A DNA stretch of 64,000 nucleotides from an uncultured Candidatus Saccharibacteria bacterium (GTDB taxonomy: Bacteria; Patescibacteriota; UBA1384; XYA2-FULL-43-10; 1-14-0-10-43-13): assembly GCA_964364265.1 (NCBI GenBank), contig CAYILA010000004.1, positions 9,126-73,125 on the forward strand, given 5' to 3'. The notes beneath the pieces are model-generated. The model was not told the DNA's origin. It searched no databases and saw only the letters and a program-made list of their open reading frames with translations. This document shows positions 1,117 to 49,442 of the stretch, in pieces (positions within the stretch are counted from its first letter, which is position 1; every line of letters begins with the position of its first letter). A program made the position numbers and the translations under genes.

Positions 1117-1207
1117 CTTCCCCTCCTAATGTAGGAGGGGGTGGGGAGGTATAATTGTTTTAAATTTATTCTACTCCCGCTTACTCCCCCTACTCTAGTG
1201 GGAGAAC
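1117..1207. repeat. Hairpin A (cccctcctaatgtaggagggg) plus hairpin B (cttactccccctactctagtgggag) pair; looks like the empty site of the DUF559 element at 44113-44548
   Basis: Both hairpins, 13 nt apart, match the two ends of the element at 44113-44548; related copies at 11836-11925 and 33355-33415. Confidence 0.5.
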
Positions 1208-11835: not shown

Positions 11836-11925
11836 AAATAGTTCTCCTCCTAATGTAGGAGGAGTCAGAGGAGGTATAATCCACTATTTACAGAGGTATA
11901 ATCCACTATTTACATTGGAACGAGA
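11836..11925. repeat. Hairpin A copy (ctcctcctaatgtaggaggag) followed by tandem gaggtataatccactatttaca x2; possible promoter for rpsT
   Basis: Same hairpin A as 1121 and 44118; two TATAAT-like boxes. Confidence 0.4.
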
Positions 11926-12074
11926 ATATGTTAAAGTGTCTATTGTATTCCAAGCGCATCATTCCACTTCGTGTCATCCCGACCGAAGTGGAGGGATCTT
12001 TTAAAAGATTTCTCGACTCGATAGATTCACTCACTCGAAATGACAAACTAATTAGAAATATAGGAATTACTGTT

Positions 12075-13312: not shown

Positions 13313-13348
13313 TCAGAAAACCAAGCGCCTCCCTGTATTCAGGGAGGC
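13313..13348. terminator. Bidirectional rho-independent terminator (agcgcctccctg-tatt-cagggaggcgc)
   Basis: 11-bp GC stem with T/A runs on both sides, between convergent genes. Confidence 0.7.
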
Positions 13349-13357
13349 GCGATTTTA

Positions 13358-33059: not shown

Positions 33060-33340
33060 GGAAGCGGCCGCCCACGGGGGGCGGCACGCTGTTCTGCTAG
33101 GTTTGAACGACGGCCCTAGCAAGCCTAAGACCAGAAGGATCAAATATTGATCACTTTGGTCTTGCCTCAATCCGGATTAGATTAAGGCAGGTGACGAGCG
33201 GGACGCGCCCCGACCCCATATAGGGGATGGCAAGCGGGGGCAATACCCACGGCGCTCCATAGAGCGTGTCCGCACTCGGAGACAAAGCTTGCTTTCGCAT
33301 GGTTCCTTGCCTCGAGGGTCCTCCTCCTGGATCAGGAGGA
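33060..33340. ncRNA. Candidate structured ncRNA of unknown class inside a 780-bp gene-free region
   Basis: Five or more consecutive stable hairpins (gccgccc-acgg-gggcggc, gctagg...cctagc, aagaccagaagg...cactttggtctt, cccc-atat-agggg, gcgctc-cata-gagcgt); no ORF; RNase P, tmRNA and SRP signature motifs not convincingly found. Confidence 0.25.
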
Positions 33341-33354
33341 GTTAGAGGAGGTAG

Positions 33355-33415
33355 TTAAATAGATTTTTCTATCTTACTACCCTCACTAACTCTCCCTAAT
33401 CTAGGGAGAGAACAT
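33355..33415. repeat. Hairpin B copy (ctccctaatctagggagag) of the DUF559-element family
   Basis: cttactaccctcactaactctccctaatctagggagag. Confidence 0.4.
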
Positions 33416-40395: not shown

Positions 40396-43300
40396 ATGCC
40401 AGATGAATCTAAAACTGAAGAGTTCAAGCCTTCTCCCTTCGTCCACCTCCATGTGCACAGTCATTATTCGATGCTGGACGGTATGGGCAAGATCCCCGAT
40501 CTGGTCGCTAAGGCCAAAGCCGACGGTCAAACCGCCCTTGCTATTACCGACCACGGCGTCATGCATGGGGCGATTGAGTTCTATGAAGAATGTGAAAAAG
40601 AGGGCATTTTGCCCCTGATCGGGGTCGAGATATATATGGCGCCCCGGACACTCAAGGACAAAACCCCCCGGATCGACGCCAACCCCTATCACCTCGTTCT
40701 GATCGCCAAGAACGAAGAGGGTTATAAGAATCTATTAAAAATCACGACAATCGCCCATCTGGAGGGATATTATTACAAACCGAGAATCGATAAGGCCACG
40801 CTCAAGAAACACTCCGCCGGTTTGATTGCCCTTTCCGCCTGTTTGCAGGGCGAAATCCCGCGCAAAGCGCTTGAAAATATGGACAGAGCAAGAGGAGCAA
40901 TCTTGGAATACAAGGAGATATTTCCAAACGGCGATTTTTATCTCGAAGTCCAAAAACACCCCTCGATCCAGATTCAAGACCGGGTCAATAAATTGATATT
41001 ACAACTTGCCAAAGAAACTGGTCTCAAAGTAGTCGCCACCTGCGACACCCATTATGTCAATCCGGACGACGCCATTGCCCAAGACGCTCTCATCTGCCTC
41101 CAGACCGGCCGTATTCTCTCCGATACCAACCGTATGTCGATGAAGGGGGATGATTACTCCTTAAAGACCACCGCCGAGATGATGGCCAATTTCCCCGATA
41201 ATCCCGAGACAATCACTAACACCCAAGAGATCGCGGAGAAGTGCAACCTTCACCTCGAGCTCGGCGGAATGATCTTTCCGGTCTTTCCTGTCCCGGAGAA
41301 CTATAGCATTGAATCTTATTTTATGGAGAAGGCCTATCTCGGGCTGAACTGGCGCTACGGAAGCGAGAAGATCAATAAAGATGATCTATATGCCGCTATT
41401 GATGTCATTCCCACCTCCTCTCCTGTCATCCCGACCGAAGCGGAGGGATCCCTCGACTCGCAAACCACACTCTCTCGGGATGACATTTTTAATGTTCAAT
41501 TCAAGAAAATAACGGCAGATATATTAAAAATATCACCTGAAATCTGGGAACGAGCCGAATACGAACTGGGCGTGATTAATAAAATGGGCTATCAGGGCTA
41601 TTTCTTAATTGTGGCCGACTATGTCAACTGGGCCAAGGAGCAGGGAATAGCCGTCGGTCCGGGCCGCGGCTCGGCCGCCGGTTCAATCATCGCTTTCGGC
41701 ATGAATATCACCAATCTTGACCCGTTGCAGTTCGATCTCCTCTTTGAACGATTTTTGAACCCCGATCGAATAAGCATGCCGGATGTTGATATGGATTTTG
41801 CCGATTCCAGACGGGGTGAGGTAATTGAATATGTTTGTTCCAAATATGGCCGCGATCATGTCGCCCAGATTATCACCTTTGGCACCATGGCTGCCAGGAT
41901 GGCGATACGCGATGTCGGGCGGGTTTTGGGCATGAGCTATGCCGAGGTTGACCTGATAGCCAAGCTAATTCCCCTTGGCATGCATCTGCAGGAGTCGATC
42001 GATTTCGTCTCCGAGCTCAAGGATCTCTACTCGGCTAATGCTCAAGTCAAGGAGTGTCTCGATATCGCCAAGAAGCTGGAGGGTGTTGTCCGCCACGCCT
42101 CCGTTCACGCCGCAGGCGTGGTCATTTCAAAGGAAAGATTGACCGAATATGTCCCCCTCCAGGAAGCTGCCAAAGGTGATATTTCAGTCGTAACCCAGTA
42201 CTCGATGAACCCGATCGAACACCTCGGCCTTTTGAAAATGGACTTTCTCGGCCTTTCCAACCTCACCATCATCCAAAATGCTCTTCGTATCATTCGCAAA
42301 ACTAAAAATACCGAGCTCGATATTGATAGTATCCCCTTGGATGATAAAGAAAGTTACAAGCTCCTCTCCCGCGCCGAAACGATCGGCATCTTCCAATTGG
42401 AATCGGAGGGCATGCGCCGCTACCTGAAAGAACTCAAACCGAATGTCTTTGAAGATATTATCGCTATGGTCGCTCTCTATCGTCCCGGCCCGATGCAATG
42501 GATTGACTCCTTCATCGCCCGCAAACACGGCAAAGAGCCGATCAGCTACGCTCACGAAAAAGCCAAGGCCTCGCTTGAAAATACCTACGGAATCATTGTC
42601 TATCAGGAACAGTTGATGCAGATGGCCAAGGATATGGCCAATTTCAGCGGCGGCCAGGCCGACACTCTCCGCAAAGCGACCGGCAAGAAAATCAAGGAAT
42701 TGATGGTTAAGGTCGGCAAAGAGTTTGTCGAAGGTTGTATTAATAACGAGATTGATAAGAAAATCGCCGAAGAGCTTTACCACGCTATGCAGGATTTCGC
42801 CCAATACTCCTTCAACAAATCCCATGCCGCCTGCTACGCCCTAATCTCTTATCAGACCGCCTATCTTAAAGCCCACTATCCCTCCGAATTTATGGCTTCT
42901 TTAATGACCTCGAACCAGGGCGATCTCGATAAGCTGGCGATTGACATTTCCGAATGCGAGCGGATGGACATTAAAGTCCTCCCCCCTTCGGTTAATGAAT
43001 CCTTCGTCGAGTTCGGTGTGGTCAAGGAAACCGGTAATGTCCGCTTCGGCCTTTCGGCTATCAAGAATGTCGGTGCGGCCGTGGCCGAAGAGATCGTCGA
43101 GGAGAGGAAGAATAATGGAATCTATGCCGACCTCAAAAGTTTGATAACGCGGCTTGATGCCAAAGTAATAAACAAGAAATCACTCGAAGCCCTGATTATG
43201 GCCGGCGCTTTGGATGACCTGGGGGAGAGAGCCGAATTGATATACAATCTGGAACGGATTTTGAGCTTTGCCAATTCTTTTTCAAAAAACAAGACCTCGG

Positions 43301-44124
43301 GCCAGAATTCGCTCTTCGGTGAATCGGAGATTCAAATCGGCGATATTGAATTGGAAAAAACCAAACCGGCGGACCGCAAACAACGGCTGACCTGGGAGCG
43401 TGAACTTTTGGGAATGTATGTCTCGGAACACCCCCTGCAGGGAATCGCCCACACTCTTGAACCAAACCGAAACAAGAAGATGAACGAGATCACAGAAGAT
43501 ATTGAAGGCGAATTCATCCGCGTCGCCGGCATCATTACCACAATCCAAAAGATTCTAACCCGCTCCAACCAAAACATGGTCTTTGCCAAACTGGAGGATT
43601 TAAACGGCAATGTTGAAATTCTGGCTTTTCCCAAAGTTCTGGAAGCTAATCCGCTTCTCTGGCTGGCTGATAAGATCGTGGCTGTTGACGGTTATGTCTC
43701 GTTTAAGGACGGCGCGCCCAAGATTTTGGCCGAAGCGATCCATGAAATATCAGAAACTAAGAATGCCCCCGCTTTTGAACCCAGGGCTAAGAAAAAAAGG
43801 GAATTTGGTTCTCCTCCTAGGGTAGGGGGAGTTAGTAGGGGTACGAATGCACCTGATGGCCCCCAAAATGCCGTTAGTGTAGCTTCTATCACCTCCCGGA
43901 CCCCCAAATTAATAACTATTACCGTTCCGGCCGGTTCCCACATGGATATCCTGCAGGATATTAAAGAGATTTTGCAAAAGCACCCGGGCGAAACTGCCGT
44001 AACATTAAAAATCCCCAACAACGGATCGGGTTATAAAGAGATTAAAATCAAAACTAAAGTCGAGCGCAATCCGGTGCTTCTGCGCCAGTTAAAAGAATTG
44101 GTCGGCAAAGAAAATGTTGTTTAA
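40396..44124 (+). CDS. dnaE: DNA polymerase III alpha subunit
   Basis: PHP domain (HLHVHSHYSMLDG), polymerase core and OB domain; about 110-aa C-terminal extension; in-frame PE-1 insertion at 41423-41484 (PVIPTEAEGSLD...LSRDD). Confidence 0.95.
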   Translation: MPDESKTEEFKPSPFVHLHVHSHYSMLDGMGKIPDLVAKAKADGQTALAITDHGVMHGAIEFYEECEKEGILPLIGVEIYMAPRTLKDKTPRIDANPYHLVLIAKNEEGYKNLLKITTIAHLEGYYYKPRIDKATLKKHSAGLIALSACLQGEIPRKALENMDRARGAILEYKEIFPNGDFYLEVQKHPSIQIQDRVNKLILQLAKETGLKVVATCDTHYVNPDDAIAQDALICLQTGRILSDTNRMSMKGDDYSLKTTAEMMANFPDNPETITNTQEIAEKCNLHLELGGMIFPVFPVPENYSIESYFMEKAYLGLNWRYGSEKINKDDLYAAIDVIPTSSPVIPTEAEGSLDSQTTLSRDDIFNVQFKKITADILKISPEIWERAEYELGVINKMGYQGYFLIVADYVNWAKEQGIAVGPGRGSAAGSIIAFGMNITNLDPLQFDLLFERFLNPDRISMPDVDMDFADSRRGEVIEYVCSKYGRDHVAQIITFGTMAARMAIRDVGRVLGMSYAEVDLIAKLIPLGMHLQESIDFVSELKDLYSANAQVKECLDIAKKLEGVVRHASVHAAGVVISKERLTEYVPLQEAAKGDISVVTQYSMNPIEHLGLLKMDFLGLSNLTIIQNALRIIRKTKNTELDIDSIPLDDKESYKLLSRAETIGIFQLESEGMRRYLKELKPNVFEDIIAMVALYRPGPMQWIDSFIARKHGKEPISYAHEKAKASLENTYGIIVYQEQLMQMAKDMANFSGGQADTLRKATGKKIKELMVKVGKEFVEGCINNEIDKKIAEELYHAMQDFAQYSFNKSHAACYALISYQTAYLKAHYPSEFMASLMTSNQGDLDKLAIDISECERMDIKVLPPSVNESFVEFGVVKETGNVRFGLSAIKNVGAAVAEEIVEERKNNGIYADLKSLITRLDAKVINKKSLEALIMAGALDDLGERAELIYNLERILSFANSFSKNKTSGQNSLFGESEIQIGDIELEKTKPADRKQRLTWERELLGMYVSEHPLQGIAHTLEPNRNKKMNEITEDIEGEFIRVAGIITTIQKILTRSNQNMVFAKLEDLNGNVEILAFPKVLEANPLLWLADKIVAVDGYVSFKDGAPKILAEAIHEISETKNAPAFEPRAKKKREFGSPPRVGGVSRGTNAPDGPQNAVSVASITSRTPKLITITVPAGSHMDILQDIKEILQKHPGETAVTLKIPNNGSGYKEIKIKTKVERNPVLLRQLKELVGKENVV

Positions 44125-44548
44125 TTCCCTCCCCTAAATTAGGGGAGGATAGGTGGGGTACTATGAATAAATATCATTTTAATAACTCAGACATTAAAAT
44201 AATTAGACAAGTATTACGAAGAAATATGCCTCAACCGGAGGTGATCCTCTGGAATAGGATACGGGGCAAACAGTTGGGATATAAATTCAGAAGACAGTTT
44301 AGCATTATTAATTACATAATCGATTTTTATTGCCCGGAAAAACATCTTGCAATTGAAATTGATGGAGAATCTCATTTCCGACCAAGAAATATTGAATGCG
44401 ATAATATTAGAGACAATAACCTGAGAACAATTGGGATTAAAGTTTTAAGATTTACAAACATTGAGATTAAAGACAACATGGATGGGGTGATAACAGCTAT
44501 ACTTTCAGAGCTCAATACCCCCTCTTACTCCCCCTAATCTAGGGGAAG
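44113..44548. mobile_element. Hairpin A / hairpin B bounded element carrying a DUF559 gene
   Basis: Hairpin A cctcccctaaattaggggagg at 44118-44140 and hairpin B cttactccccctaatctaggggaag at 44520-44545 match the empty pair at 1117-1207. Confidence 0.5.
44163..44537 (+). CDS. DUF559 endonuclease-like protein (Vsr / restriction-endonuclease-like fold)
   Basis: QLGYKFRRQFSIINYIIDFYCPEKHLAIEIDGESH ... GIKVLRFTNIEI is the canonical DUF559 core. Confidence 0.8.
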   Translation: MNKYHFNNSDIKIIRQVLRRNMPQPEVILWNRIRGKQLGYKFRRQFSIINYIIDFYCPEKHLAIEIDGESHFRPRNIECDNIRDNNLRTIGIKVLRFTNIEIKDNMDGVITAILSELNTPSYSP

Positions 44549-44588: not shown

Positions 44589-45125
44589 ATGAGCGAAAAC
44601 CAATTTGATAAAATCAAGGAGAAAGACGAGATCCTTTTGTCGGTTTACCGCAAGAGCATTCTTCCCTATTACAGCCAGTTGATACTGGGCCTGATCTGCG
44701 GTCTCGGCTCGATTATACTGACCTCCTTTTTTCCCGACCTGGCTTACGCCGCTTGGATCTTCGGCATCGGCTTCACCCTGATGGCCTATTTCATTCTACG
44801 CGCCTGGTACTGCTGGAACAAAAGCCTGTTCTTTATCACCAACTTGCGGGTGATCGCCCTGACACAGGAGGGGATTTTCTCACAGAAAAAGGAGGAATCA
44901 TATCTCGAGGACATCTGCCAGACCGCCGCCAAGGTGAAGGGCTTCAGACAGTCAATATTCCACTACGGCCGCGTCCTGGTCCAAACCGAAGCCGAACTCT
45001 GGCTTGAAGATATCGAGAGGCCGCATGAGGTTAATGACGCTATTTTCGACGCCGTCCGCAAGCATGTCCATCAACACACAAATACGCTTCCAAACAAATT
45101 CTGGAAGATGAAGGACAAGAAATAA
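44589..45125 (+). CDS. Hypothetical membrane protein (2 TM plus cytoplasmic domain)
   Basis: Architecture similar to ORF 48489-48992; no motif recognised. Confidence 0.4.
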   Translation: MSENQFDKIKEKDEILLSVYRKSILPYYSQLILGLICGLGSIILTSFFPDLAYAAWIFGIGFTLMAYFILRAWYCWNKSLFFITNLRVIALTQEGIFSQKKEESYLEDICQTAAKVKGFRQSIFHYGRVLVQTEAELWLEDIERPHEVNDAIFDAVRKHVHQHTNTLPNKFWKMKDKK

Positions 45126-49014: not shown

Positions 49015-49050
49015 GCGGGACGCTAAGCGTCCCTTTCGCCACGCTTAGCG
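49015..49050. other. Two adjacent perfect palindromes (gggacgc-taa-gcgtccc and cgccacgc-tta-gcgtggcg) immediately 3' of tRNA-Ser
   Basis: Seen in the sequence; likely transcript 3' structure. Confidence 0.5.
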
Positions 49051-49143
49051 TGGCGGAGAGAATGGGATTCGAACCCATGTGGCGGCTTTTAGACCACCGA
49101 CGGTTTAGCAAACCGTTCCCTTAAGCCTCTCGGGCATCTCTCC
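49051..49143 (-). tRNA. tRNA-Ser (anticodon GCT), long variable arm, CCA encoded
   Basis: Acceptor ggagaga/tctctcc, anticodon stem acggt/accgt with loop ttGCTaa, variable arm cggtggtctaaaagccgccac, T-arm atggg-ttcgaat-cccat. Confidence 0.85.
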
Positions 49144-49147
49144 ATAA

Positions 49148-49399
49148 TTATTTCATTAATCTTTTGAAAGCTTCACCGCCTTTATAAGATTTGATTTGTT
49201 TTTCCCGTCTCATCGCTTCTGACCTTGTTTCAAAGATCTCCGTGTATTTGACTATCCAAGGAATGCCGTTCTTAGTAGACCGAGTCATGCCATCGTTGTG
49301 TCTCTCTAATCTGACTGTCATATCCTCGCACGATCCGATATAAAATCTTCCGTGTTTTTTACTTTGAATCACATAAGCATAAAACGACATATAATCCAC
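49148..49399 (-). CDS. GIY-YIG nuclease family small protein
   Basis: YAYVIQSKKHGRFYIGSCEDMTVRLERHN...REKQIK matches the GIY-YIG core; likely start is the ATG at 49390, since the GTG at 49399 lies inside the tRNA-fragment repeat. Confidence 0.8.
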   Translation of the reverse strand: MDYMSFYAYVIQSKKHGRFYIGSCEDMTVRLERHNDGMTRSTKNGIPWIVKYTEIFETRSEAMRREKQIKSYKGGEAFKRLMK

Positions 49400-49442
49400 C
49401 GACGGTTTAGTCCCGCCAACGGCGGGATTCCCTTATCCGCAT
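49391..49442. repeat. Diverged duplicate of the 5' half of tRNA-Ser flanking the GIY-YIG gene
   Basis: ggagagatgc ... aagggaa ... ctaaaccgtcggtgg is shared with the 5' part of tRNA-Ser at 49099-49143. Confidence 0.5.

Follow-up and report, generated by a model that had tools for sequence, protein, structure and literature searches.

A DUF559 nuclease gene between inverted triplex-motif repeats in a Saccharibacteria genome: a candidate partner for the BoxC/PIT/TM elements

In a 64,000-nt stretch of DNA from an uncultured Candidatus Saccharibacteria bacterium (contig CAYILA010000004.1 of assembly GCA_964364265.1, positions 9,126–73,125; hereafter the window), a gene for a small DUF559 protein, a predicted endonuclease, stands just behind dnaE between two inverted hairpins. 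Why is such a gene enclosed in this way, what kind of hairpins enclose it, and does the whole unit move? An exact protein look-up traces the window to a contig of a Hainich groundwater metagenome (ENA ERZ1292623). A first-pass annotation of the window had taken the locus for the filled site of a homing-type or otherwise mobile cassette. Our analysis shows a strong, oriented and cross-phylum association of small DUF559 genes with triplex-motif repeats. What is new is this association, the repeat family itself being known since the 1990s. The reading that we favour, and to which we give about an even chance, is that of a repeat-bounded nuclease cassette in which DUF559 protein and triplex repeats form a partnership resembling that of RAYT and REPIN, the nuclease acting at the repeats.

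The cassette and its repeats

The cassette measures 421 bp (44128–44548, plus strand) and consists of a triplex-motif repeat on the plus strand, the DUF559 gene and a triplex-motif repeat on the minus strand, set between the stop codon of dnaE at 44124 and the start of a gene for a 178-aa protein at 44589. The three genes, dnaE (40396–44124) included, share one strand, the DUF559 gene following dnaE after 39 nt and preceding the 178-aa gene by 51 nt, and no promoter-like site was seen directly before it in this co-directional string. The upstream repeat at the left end, TM(+) (44128–44160, plus strand, 33 nt), is composed of the hairpin CCTCCCCTAA-A-TTAGGGGAGG (44128–44148), the loop ATA and the mirror purine block GGTGGGGTA (44152–44160), with 8/8 triplex-compatible triplets in the mirror register; the ATG of the DUF559 gene comes 2 nt past this block. 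The downstream repeat at the right end, TM(-) (44516–44548, minus strand, 8/8 triplets), reads on the plus strand as the pyrimidine block TACCCCCTC (44516–44524), the loop TTA and the hairpin CTCCCCCTA-ATC-TAGGGGAAG (44528–44548). It codes for the C-terminal residues of the protein (..TPSYSP) and contains the stop codon, TAA at 44535–44537, two bases of which end the 5' arm while the third opens the loop. Judged by eye, the inverted repeats at the two ends are about 74% alike. The first-pass annotation is borne out on these points, since it had placed a 124-aa DUF559 gene between the hairpins at 44128–44148 and 44528–44548, which it called A and B, and the stop codon inside hairpin B.

The gene (44163–44537, plus strand) encodes a 124-aa DUF559 / Vsr-like PD-(D/E)XK nuclease (Pfam PF04480, E 4e-28; 97.8 bits against a gathering cut-off of 20.6). 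The NCBIfam YcjD model (NF007294) matches the protein over its full length with 61.6 bits against an equivalog cut-off of 218, and the protein can be called a relative of YcjD and no orthologue. Like YcjD and NGO0050 of Neisseria gonorrhoeae (3HRL), it is a single-domain DUF559 protein of about 117–124 aa, and 3HRL, the Neisseria DUF559 protein, is the sole solved relative retrieved by sequence search of the PDB (E 3.6e-14). An AlphaFold2 model built from 30 homologues (pLDDT 92) predicts a Vsr-like alpha/beta fold, which Foldseek matched to 3HRL (E 1e-6), to the catalytic domain of I-Bth0305I (E 5e-4) and to Vsr (E 0.02), I-Bth0305I being the nearest neighbour of the model that has been characterised biochemically. 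All family-invariant residues of the alignment are kept (E26, W30, K41–Q45, D54, E65, D67, H71, D80 and R96), so that the gene looks intact and is predicted to encode an endonuclease; D54, E65, D67, H71 and D80, invariant across the 30 aligned sequences, are the putative catalytic residues. The best matches come from several phyla at about 45–55% identity, and the DUF559 tree lacks host coherence. Pfam found no transposase domain in the protein, and the searchable literature held no published substrate for a small DUF559 protein of this type. A defence system was considered and rejected, PADLOC having given only weak partial matches to nuclease domains.

As for the hairpins, a palindrome scan of the window brought out one distinctive family, CYCCYCCTA-NNN-TAGGRGGRG, the copies of which align in one orientation as TTC, a pyrimidine arm, three nucleotides, a purine arm, TWA and a purine block ending in GGTA. 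This third block, the purine tail by which the family is identified and which the first-pass annotation had missed, mirrors the purine arm and could form antiparallel G*G:C, A*A:T and T*A:T triplets with the hairpin. Indeed, 7 or 8 of 8 triplets are compatible in every window copy scored by the detector, and among 501 hairpin-strand cases taken from the window and from the 80 loci described below, 8/8 triplets were reached 152 times in the mirror register, 33 times in the direct register and 6 times in the control, a segment 40 nt further downstream. The tail as a direct repeat or as a Shine-Dalgarno (SD) duplicate of the arm was rejected, the mirror register fitting far better. A G-quadruplex of arm and tail, which the G-runs would permit, was set aside as well, the biophysics of TMECO supporting a triplex (PMC4666352).

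Because the third, mirror purine block is present, the window repeats can be assigned from their sequence to the BoxC/PIT/TM family, as a variant and not as TMECO in the strict sense. Holder et al. (2015) described TMECO by the consensus CCCTCNCCC-N3-6-GGGNGAGGG-N3-GGGNGAGGG, the second loop being most often TTA, and demonstrated triplex formation in vitro. In MG1655 they counted 23 copies, five of which occur as inverted pairs made up of two dissimilar types; they found the motif in its E. coli form in 262 genomes of proteobacteria, and G/C-rich copies by the hundred in some of the cyanobacteria (PMC4666352). The same paper, which reviews BoxC studies from the 1990s and those on PIT elements by Hoyne, Maher and colleagues (2000), reports that triplex repeats raise local genome variability or instability and stall polymerases in vitro, while TM repeats are left without an assigned function and show no relation to mobile elements or to what the flanking genes do; its main text does not contain the word 'endonuclease', and ycjD figures only as a flanking gene in Table S2 (PMC4666352). 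Like BoxC/PIT/TM elements, the window repeats have five parts, namely a C-rich arm of about 9 nt, a loop, a G-rich arm, a 3-nt loop and a second G-rich block, and are dispersed in both orientations, mostly intergenic, found as inverted pairs of non-identical copies and spread over many phyla. TTA serves as second loop in many copies of both, while the first loop has 3–6 nt in BoxC/PIT/TM and 1–3 nt here. The arms, CYCCYCCTA / TAGGRGGRG, are unlike the CCCTCNCCC / GGGNGAGGG of TMECO, the consensus of which is not matched, and one window copy lies inside a coding region, that of dnaE, whereas TMECO is reported as always intergenic. Rfam at its gathering score returned 4 tRNAs only, and around the locus only matches with E > 1, with no repeat family.

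In all, eight copies are found in the window, with stems of 8–10 bp and loops of 1–3 nt, about 70–75% alike and with compensating changes in the arms. A first gene-less inverted pair is formed by CCCCTCCTA-ATG-TAGGAGGGG-GT-GGGGAGGTA (1120–1151, plus strand) and TACTCCCGC-TTA-CTCCCCCTA-CTC-TAGTGGGAG (1172–1204, minus strand), separated by an AT-rich spacer of 20 nt (1152–1171). The first-pass annotation had seen at 1117–1207 the same two hairpins as in the cassette, 13 bp apart and without a gene; a related gene-less pair does stand at 1120–1204, but its repeats are about 70–75% alike to those of the cassette and not the same, and the stems lie 43 nt and the complete motifs 20 nt apart. A second gene-less pair consists of CTCCTCCTG-GAT-CAGGAGGAG-TTA-GAGGAGGTA (33321–33353, plus strand) and TACCCTCAC-TAA-CTCTCCCTA-ATC-TAGGGAGAG (33378–33410, minus strand) around a 24-nt spacer (33354–33377), so that the single hairpin formerly noted at 33355 belongs to an inverted pair, while the one noted at 11836 is confirmed as a single copy, CTCCTCCTA-ATG-TAGGAGGAG-TCA-GAGGAGGTA (11844–11876, plus strand), in a divergent intergenic region. 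The eighth copy, overlooked until now, stands in frame inside dnaE (CTCCTCCTA-GGG-TAGGGGGAG-TTA-GTAGGGGTA, 43811–43843, plus strand, 7/8 triplets), where it encodes ..SPPRVGGVSRG.. (GSPPRVGGVSRG) within a C-terminal linker that is hypervariable among related lineages.

The detector counted 8 pyrimidine/purine hairpins in the window, 7 of them complete motifs; an extra copy at 1184, which has a T in its arm, escapes it and was read by eye. In 30 dinucleotide-preserving shuffles of the window, the mean was 1.0 hairpin with 0 complete motifs, and the pattern CTTACTCCCCCTANTCTAG has 4 window matches where 0.01 are expected. The hairpins therefore resemble one another beyond the background of palindromes, as the first-pass annotation had supposed, and generic terminators or chance palindromes are excluded by the shuffles and by the missing T-run. 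Two observations can be added on these regions. At 11871–11910, the end of the solo repeat and its flank are duplicated in tandem (GAGGTATAATCCACTATT - TACA - GAGGTATAATCCACTATT), each GAGGTATAATCCACTATT copy carrying a TATAAT about 20–50 nt upstream of an open reading frame (ORF) that starts at 11928. Furthermore, an unrelated 13-bp palindrome without purine tail (GCGCCTCCCTGTA/TTCAGGGAGGCGC) lies at 13325–13350 between convergent ORFs and is probably a terminator-type hairpin.

DUF559 genes and triplex-motif repeats across phyla

The association was assessed on 80 DUF559 loci from a scan of one genome per species, the phyla including Patescibacteria, Nitrospirota, Cyanobacteria, Bacteroidota, Planctomycetota, Gammaproteobacteria, Chlorobi and Chloroflexota. 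On the upstream side, 61 of 77 loci have a pyrimidine/purine hairpin no more than 130 nt from the gene, and on the downstream side 62 of 78 do (about 79% each), which answers positively the question, raised by the first-pass annotation, of whether other DUF559 copies have such hairpins. The remainder of those loci contains 0.21 hairpins per kb, equal to 0.03 expected per flank, and the enrichment is about 25-fold on each side of the genes. Among loci typed on both sides, the tails point toward the gene ('> gene <') in 21 loci and away from it ('< gene >') in 3. Furthermore, in 42 of 67 loci the ORF stops within the pyrimidine tail or the hairpin or runs past the latter, and because the stop falls in or past the downstream repeat, many DUF559 homologues in databases end in TPSPSP..GGE. 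The sequences of the arms vary by lineage, with compensating changes in all three blocks, and the only other cargo between repeat pairs in these DUF559-centred loci is a second DUF559 gene (L061).

Two variants of the arrangement were seen. In a DUF559 subfamily found mostly in Paceibacteria-like genomes (L011, L016, L021, L025, L030, L036, L037 and L046), the tails face away from the gene, so that the locus resembles a complete [tail][hairpin][tail] module in which the hairpin is doubled and the gene enclosed. In the upstream repeats of L157 and L139, the second loop is enlarged by a segment of about 30 nt between purine arm and mirror block, and in L157 this segment is itself a hairpin (ATCCCGC...GCGGGA).

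The converse sampling started from the repeats. Metagenome contigs were scanned for the window repeat variant, giving 550 kb and 66 usable distinct contexts, made up of 28 gene-less inverted pairs (median gap 31.5 nt), 32 single repeats, 4 DUF559 cassettes (about 6%) and 2 non-coding inserts of about 200 nt with a consensus-like promoter. All 6 DUF559 matches in the 550 kb adjoin a repeat with tails inward, and DUF559 is the sole protein-coding cargo in this sample. At least six genomic contexts of one groundwater metagenome contain gene-less pairs of 125–130 nt with a conserved inner spacer; their recurrence in different contexts is evidence that gene-less pairs multiply as units. These composite pairs, seen in L121, L146, L153, L158, L165, L170 and L181, have an inner inverted repeat, GGGTGAGGG...CCCTCACCC. 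As for the non-coding inserts, L158 (reverse, about 60–330) and L159 (reverse, about 690–1000), both from groundwater metagenomes, show a repeat followed by a conserved insert of about 200 nt in opposite orientations, with a TTGACA-17-TATAAT promoter close to consensus; the insert ends at a partner repeat after about 245 nt in L158, and the hairpin that comes next in L159, at a distance of about 250 nt, belongs to another type.

An arrangement of this kind could also come about if the repeats were mere signals for the expression or packaging of a gene gained by horizontal transfer, the nuclease having an unrelated job such as Vsr-like mismatch repair or methylation-linked repair. The purine tail would then be an SD-like GGAGG/GGTGG before the ATG, and the 5' and 3' hairpins would stabilise or insulate the messenger RNA. 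The purine block stopping 2 nt before the ATG here, the hairpin end lying a median of 29 nt before the ATG elsewhere, the occurrence of GGTATAAT after two window repeats and the position of the cassette in a co-directional gene string without a promoter of its own are all in keeping with this explanation. However, distances to the start codon vary widely, the repeats are mostly gene-less, strand-symmetric as pairs and in one case inside dnaE, and the motif is kept in Bacteroidota, which make little use of SD sequences. The third block, moreover, follows the mirror (triplex) rule and not a direct-repeat or SD rule; purine-motif triplexes are not formed in RNA, and PIT elements showed neither promoter nor terminator activity in E. 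coli (summarised in PMC4666352). For the unrelated job itself speaks VsrA of Caulobacter, a DUF559 protein that acts as a methylation-linked repair nuclease (PMC12907096). Taken together, we regard this explanation as unlikely.

The cassette as an insertion

Does the cassette move, and by homing? Four related lineages were located through homologues of the 178-aa downstream protein. The spacer between dnaE and the 178-aa homologue is 54 nt in L083, and the spacer after dnaE is 19 nt in L084/L085 and 105 nt in L086–L088, with neither a DUF559 gene nor a repeat in any of these; it is 37 nt in L221, where no DUF559 gene was called, the repeat scan having covered L083–L088. The window spacer minus the 421-bp unit would be about 44 nt, close to the length in L083. 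The C-terminal segment of DnaE in relatives with an empty junction shows 38–72% protein identity, with no repeat or shared target there. Since orthologous junctions lack both gene and repeats, the comparison identifies the 421-bp unit (repeat-gene-repeat) as an insertion in this lineage, repeats included.

Against one of these relatives, dnaE itself shows another difference. Compared with the 79%-identical DnaE of L083, it contains at 41389–41496 a 108-nt in-frame insertion (36 aa, YAAIDVIPTSSPVIPTEAEGSLDSQTTLSRDDIFNV) with an 11-bp inverted repeat (TGTCATCCCGA...TCGGGATGACA) and a pyrimidine run, in which no triplex-motif repeat was found and the fold energy is ordinary (z -0.9). The window also holds a second small stand-alone nuclease gene, of the GIY-YIG type (Pfam, 80 aa, 49148–49390, minus strand), beside a 90-nt tRNA gene (49054–49143); the hairpins flanking it (49017–49057 and 49409–49429) are unrelated, and no triplex-motif repeat lies nearby.

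An inserted nuclease gene invites a homing model, in which the DUF559 protein would be a homing endonuclease, the gene-less pairs its empty targets and the repeats the homology arms for copying by break repair. The insertion relative to related lineages agrees with it, as do the tails-inward layout that gene-less pairs share with the cassette and the nearest characterised fold neighbour, a homing endonuclease. The likeness to I-Bth0305I (PMC3239194) would lie in the catalytic fold, the model reaching Foldseek E 5e-4 and a TM-score of 0.62–0.77, and a small nuclease gene inserted relative to related genomes recalls the Vsr-like homing endonucleases, for which free-standing genes of the EDxHD family have been described (PMC2677866). 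Unlike that family, the window protein belongs to Pfam DUF559 and has no extra DNA-binding domain; unlike homing endonuclease genes, the cassette is intergenic in a bacterial chromosome and not in an intron, intein or phage gene; and unlike I-Bth0305I-type genes, it is bounded by repeats, with no cognate empty target identified.

The first-pass annotation had proposed the pair at 1117–1207 as the empty site. The orthologous empty sites hold no hairpins, hence the hairpins belong to the insertion, and an alignment of 1117–1207 with the cassette shows no shared spacer and repeats that differ at about a quarter of their positions, which makes them too diverged to serve as homology arms. The spacers of both gene-less pairs in the window lack similarity to the cassette ends, and the pairs were for this reason also rejected as deletion derivatives of the cassette; they are better read as non-autonomous BoxC/PIT/TM members resembling MITEs (miniature inverted-repeat transposable elements) or REPINs. 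No filled/empty polymorphism was seen within the species or for DUF559 proteins present on multiple contigs. Furthermore, efficient homing drive would be expected to give another picture than the one found, in which the gene accompanies only about 6% of the repeats in spite of the abundance of pairs. A plasmid or phage vehicle was rejected, DUF559 relatives occurring in 38 of 72,556 plasmid records, for the most part replicons of very large size, and in 2 of 50,697 records of phages, and the near absence from phages and the position outside an intron or intein speak against homing too. The homing model thus survives in a weakened form only, in which the gene is inserted and its fold is near that of a homing endonuclease while the window pairs are no empty site, and as a whole we consider it improbable. 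Of the earlier idea of a mobile or homing-type cassette, the insertion relative to four related lineages and the fold neighbour stand; recent mobility was not seen. Indeed, recent transposition was rejected because the DUF559 proteins P0077 and P0063 occur in single contexts across many contigs, and we infer an element that is now stable and not actively jumping.

Such stability would also be expected of a guardian, that is, a host DUF559 nuclease that processes or removes the structures of triplex repeats in replication and limits damage, the linkage being due to local selection. The reported instability and in vitro polymerase stalling at the repeats (PMC4666352), the stable, single-context DUF559 loci and the relatedness of the protein to the repair nuclease Vsr fit this idea. 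A trans-acting repair enzyme, however, needs no fixed geometry between two repeats with its stop codon inside one; the gene arrived together with the repeats, and the DUF559 tree shows no host coherence, all of which makes a guardian decidedly unlikely.

E. coli ycjD and a possible nuclease-repeat partnership

In E. coli, ycjD (b1289) belongs to the DUF559 genes. As with the window gene, ycjD is followed by BoxC/TMECO repeats and has its stop codon inside one; unlike in the window cassette, the upstream element is a different hairpin of 15 bp. In ST69-type genomes, the 3' end of ycjD reads CCCTCACCC-CAA-CCCTCTCCC-TGAAAG-GGCGAGGGG, an intact repeat with the stop codon in the loop, while the 12-nt pyrimidine tail, retained in the ST69 type, has been lost from ycjD of K-12; this difference is the '12-nt insertion' of PMC12817139. 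Behind the gene (L089 4240–4420, L225 1860–2000; order sapF-ycjD-fabI) come a duplicated 3' fragment of ycjD with a decayed repeat of its own and then TMECO no. 9. The site between sapF and fabI is a variable hotspot, at which ycjD and the eefRABCD efflux operon alternate (PMC12817139). A hotspot of this kind is what one would expect if the adjacency were incidental, repeats and small selfish genes piling up in permissive intergenic spots. This we hold to be very improbable in view of the two-sided enrichment of about 25-fold, the preferred orientation, the overlap of the ORF end with the repeat and the recurrence in many phyla, to which must be added that all six DUF559 matches of the repeat-centred sample touch a repeat and that the GIY-YIG gene of the window has no such repeat nearby. 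The incidental explanation and that by expression signals are each contradicted by part of the evidence.

The favoured partnership of nuclease and repeats can be compared with that of RAYT and REP/REPIN. In both, a nuclease-type gene is enclosed by a short palindromic repeat in inverted orientation; copies of the repeat are far more numerous than the gene and occur mostly as gene-less singles or inverted doublets, while the gene is stable at one locus. On the other hand, RAYT is an HUH/Y1 transposase of the IS200/IS605-like type, whereas the enzyme here is a Vsr-like PD-(D/E)XK protein, and unlike REP, the window repeat has a third, triplex-type block and no GTAG head. By analogy, the DUF559-repeat system may work like RAYT/REPIN, yet it is no member of that class. 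With insertion sequences (IS) and MITEs, the cassette shares inverted-repeat ends; it has neither a target-site duplication nor a transposase. DUF559 and repeats would thus be paired as RAYT is with REP/REPIN or IS with MITEs, from different parts. The DUF559 gene, without a promoter of its own, would probably be read through from dnaE. Its product would recognise the repeat, be it as duplex or, in single-stranded or supercoiled DNA, folded into a hairpin, cruciform or triplex, and would nick or cut at or beside it; break repair or template switching by the host would then copy, delete or move repeat units, and rarely the gene. Repair at cut repeats would also explain the local instability reported at the E. 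coli repeats.

Several points weigh against this partnership. A PD-(D/E)XK nuclease cuts DNA and cannot rejoin it. The window repeats have diverged by about 25% while keeping the pairing and triplet rules, which argues for long residence under structural constraint and not for recent copying, and no target-site duplication is visible at any window copy. Every contig of the window's own species carries the cassette in identical form, and P0077 and P0063, each on many contigs, hold one genomic context apiece. About 20% of DUF559 loci are without a repeat by the detector, a figure that is an upper bound since the detector also misses the TMECO of E. coli. No co-variation of protein and repeat is evident, because DUF559 proteins beside near-identical repeats are only 44–52% identical to one another. 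A link of DUF559 or ycjD to BoxC/PIT/TM was not found in the searchable literature, the original BoxC and PIT reports lying outside that reach. In E. coli, a composite ycjD+TMECO query places ycjD in 3,377 of 5,426 complete genomes, and in the sampled rows its matches number 12–26 in genomes with ycjD and 1–12 in genomes without it. Published TMECO counts agree, with 19–30 in strains that we take to belong to phylogroups A/B1 and 1–2 in strains presumably of B2. The correlation between ycjD and repeat number gives weak support, because it is confounded by phylogeny, following the phylogroups, and fails in the single independent contrast at hand: ST69-type genomes with ycjD have only 12–14 matches, no more than their ycjD-free relatives. 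Repeats also persist in E. coli without ycjD, with about 12 in O157; REL606 has 20 repeats and ycjD-type loci.

Beyond this locus, small DUF559 nucleases might be the missing enzyme partner of BoxC/PIT/TM repeats throughout bacteria, creating, spreading or maintaining them by recognition of their fold together with host repair; this wider proposal is tentative, and we regard it as doubtful. For annotation, repeat-encoded tails (..TPSPSP..GGE) lengthen DUF559 ORF calls, and repeats can stand in frame inside essential genes such as dnaE. The physical link gives a candidate partner both to the BoxC/PIT/TM repeats and to the small single-domain proteins of the large DUF559 family, YcjD included, and YcjD with TMECO offers in E. 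coli a ready experimental model. If the nuclease acts on the repeats, the pair would be a second, independent partnership of repeat and enzyme alongside RAYT/REPIN, and the DUF559 protein would be one of the rare proteins able to read a non-B DNA fold.

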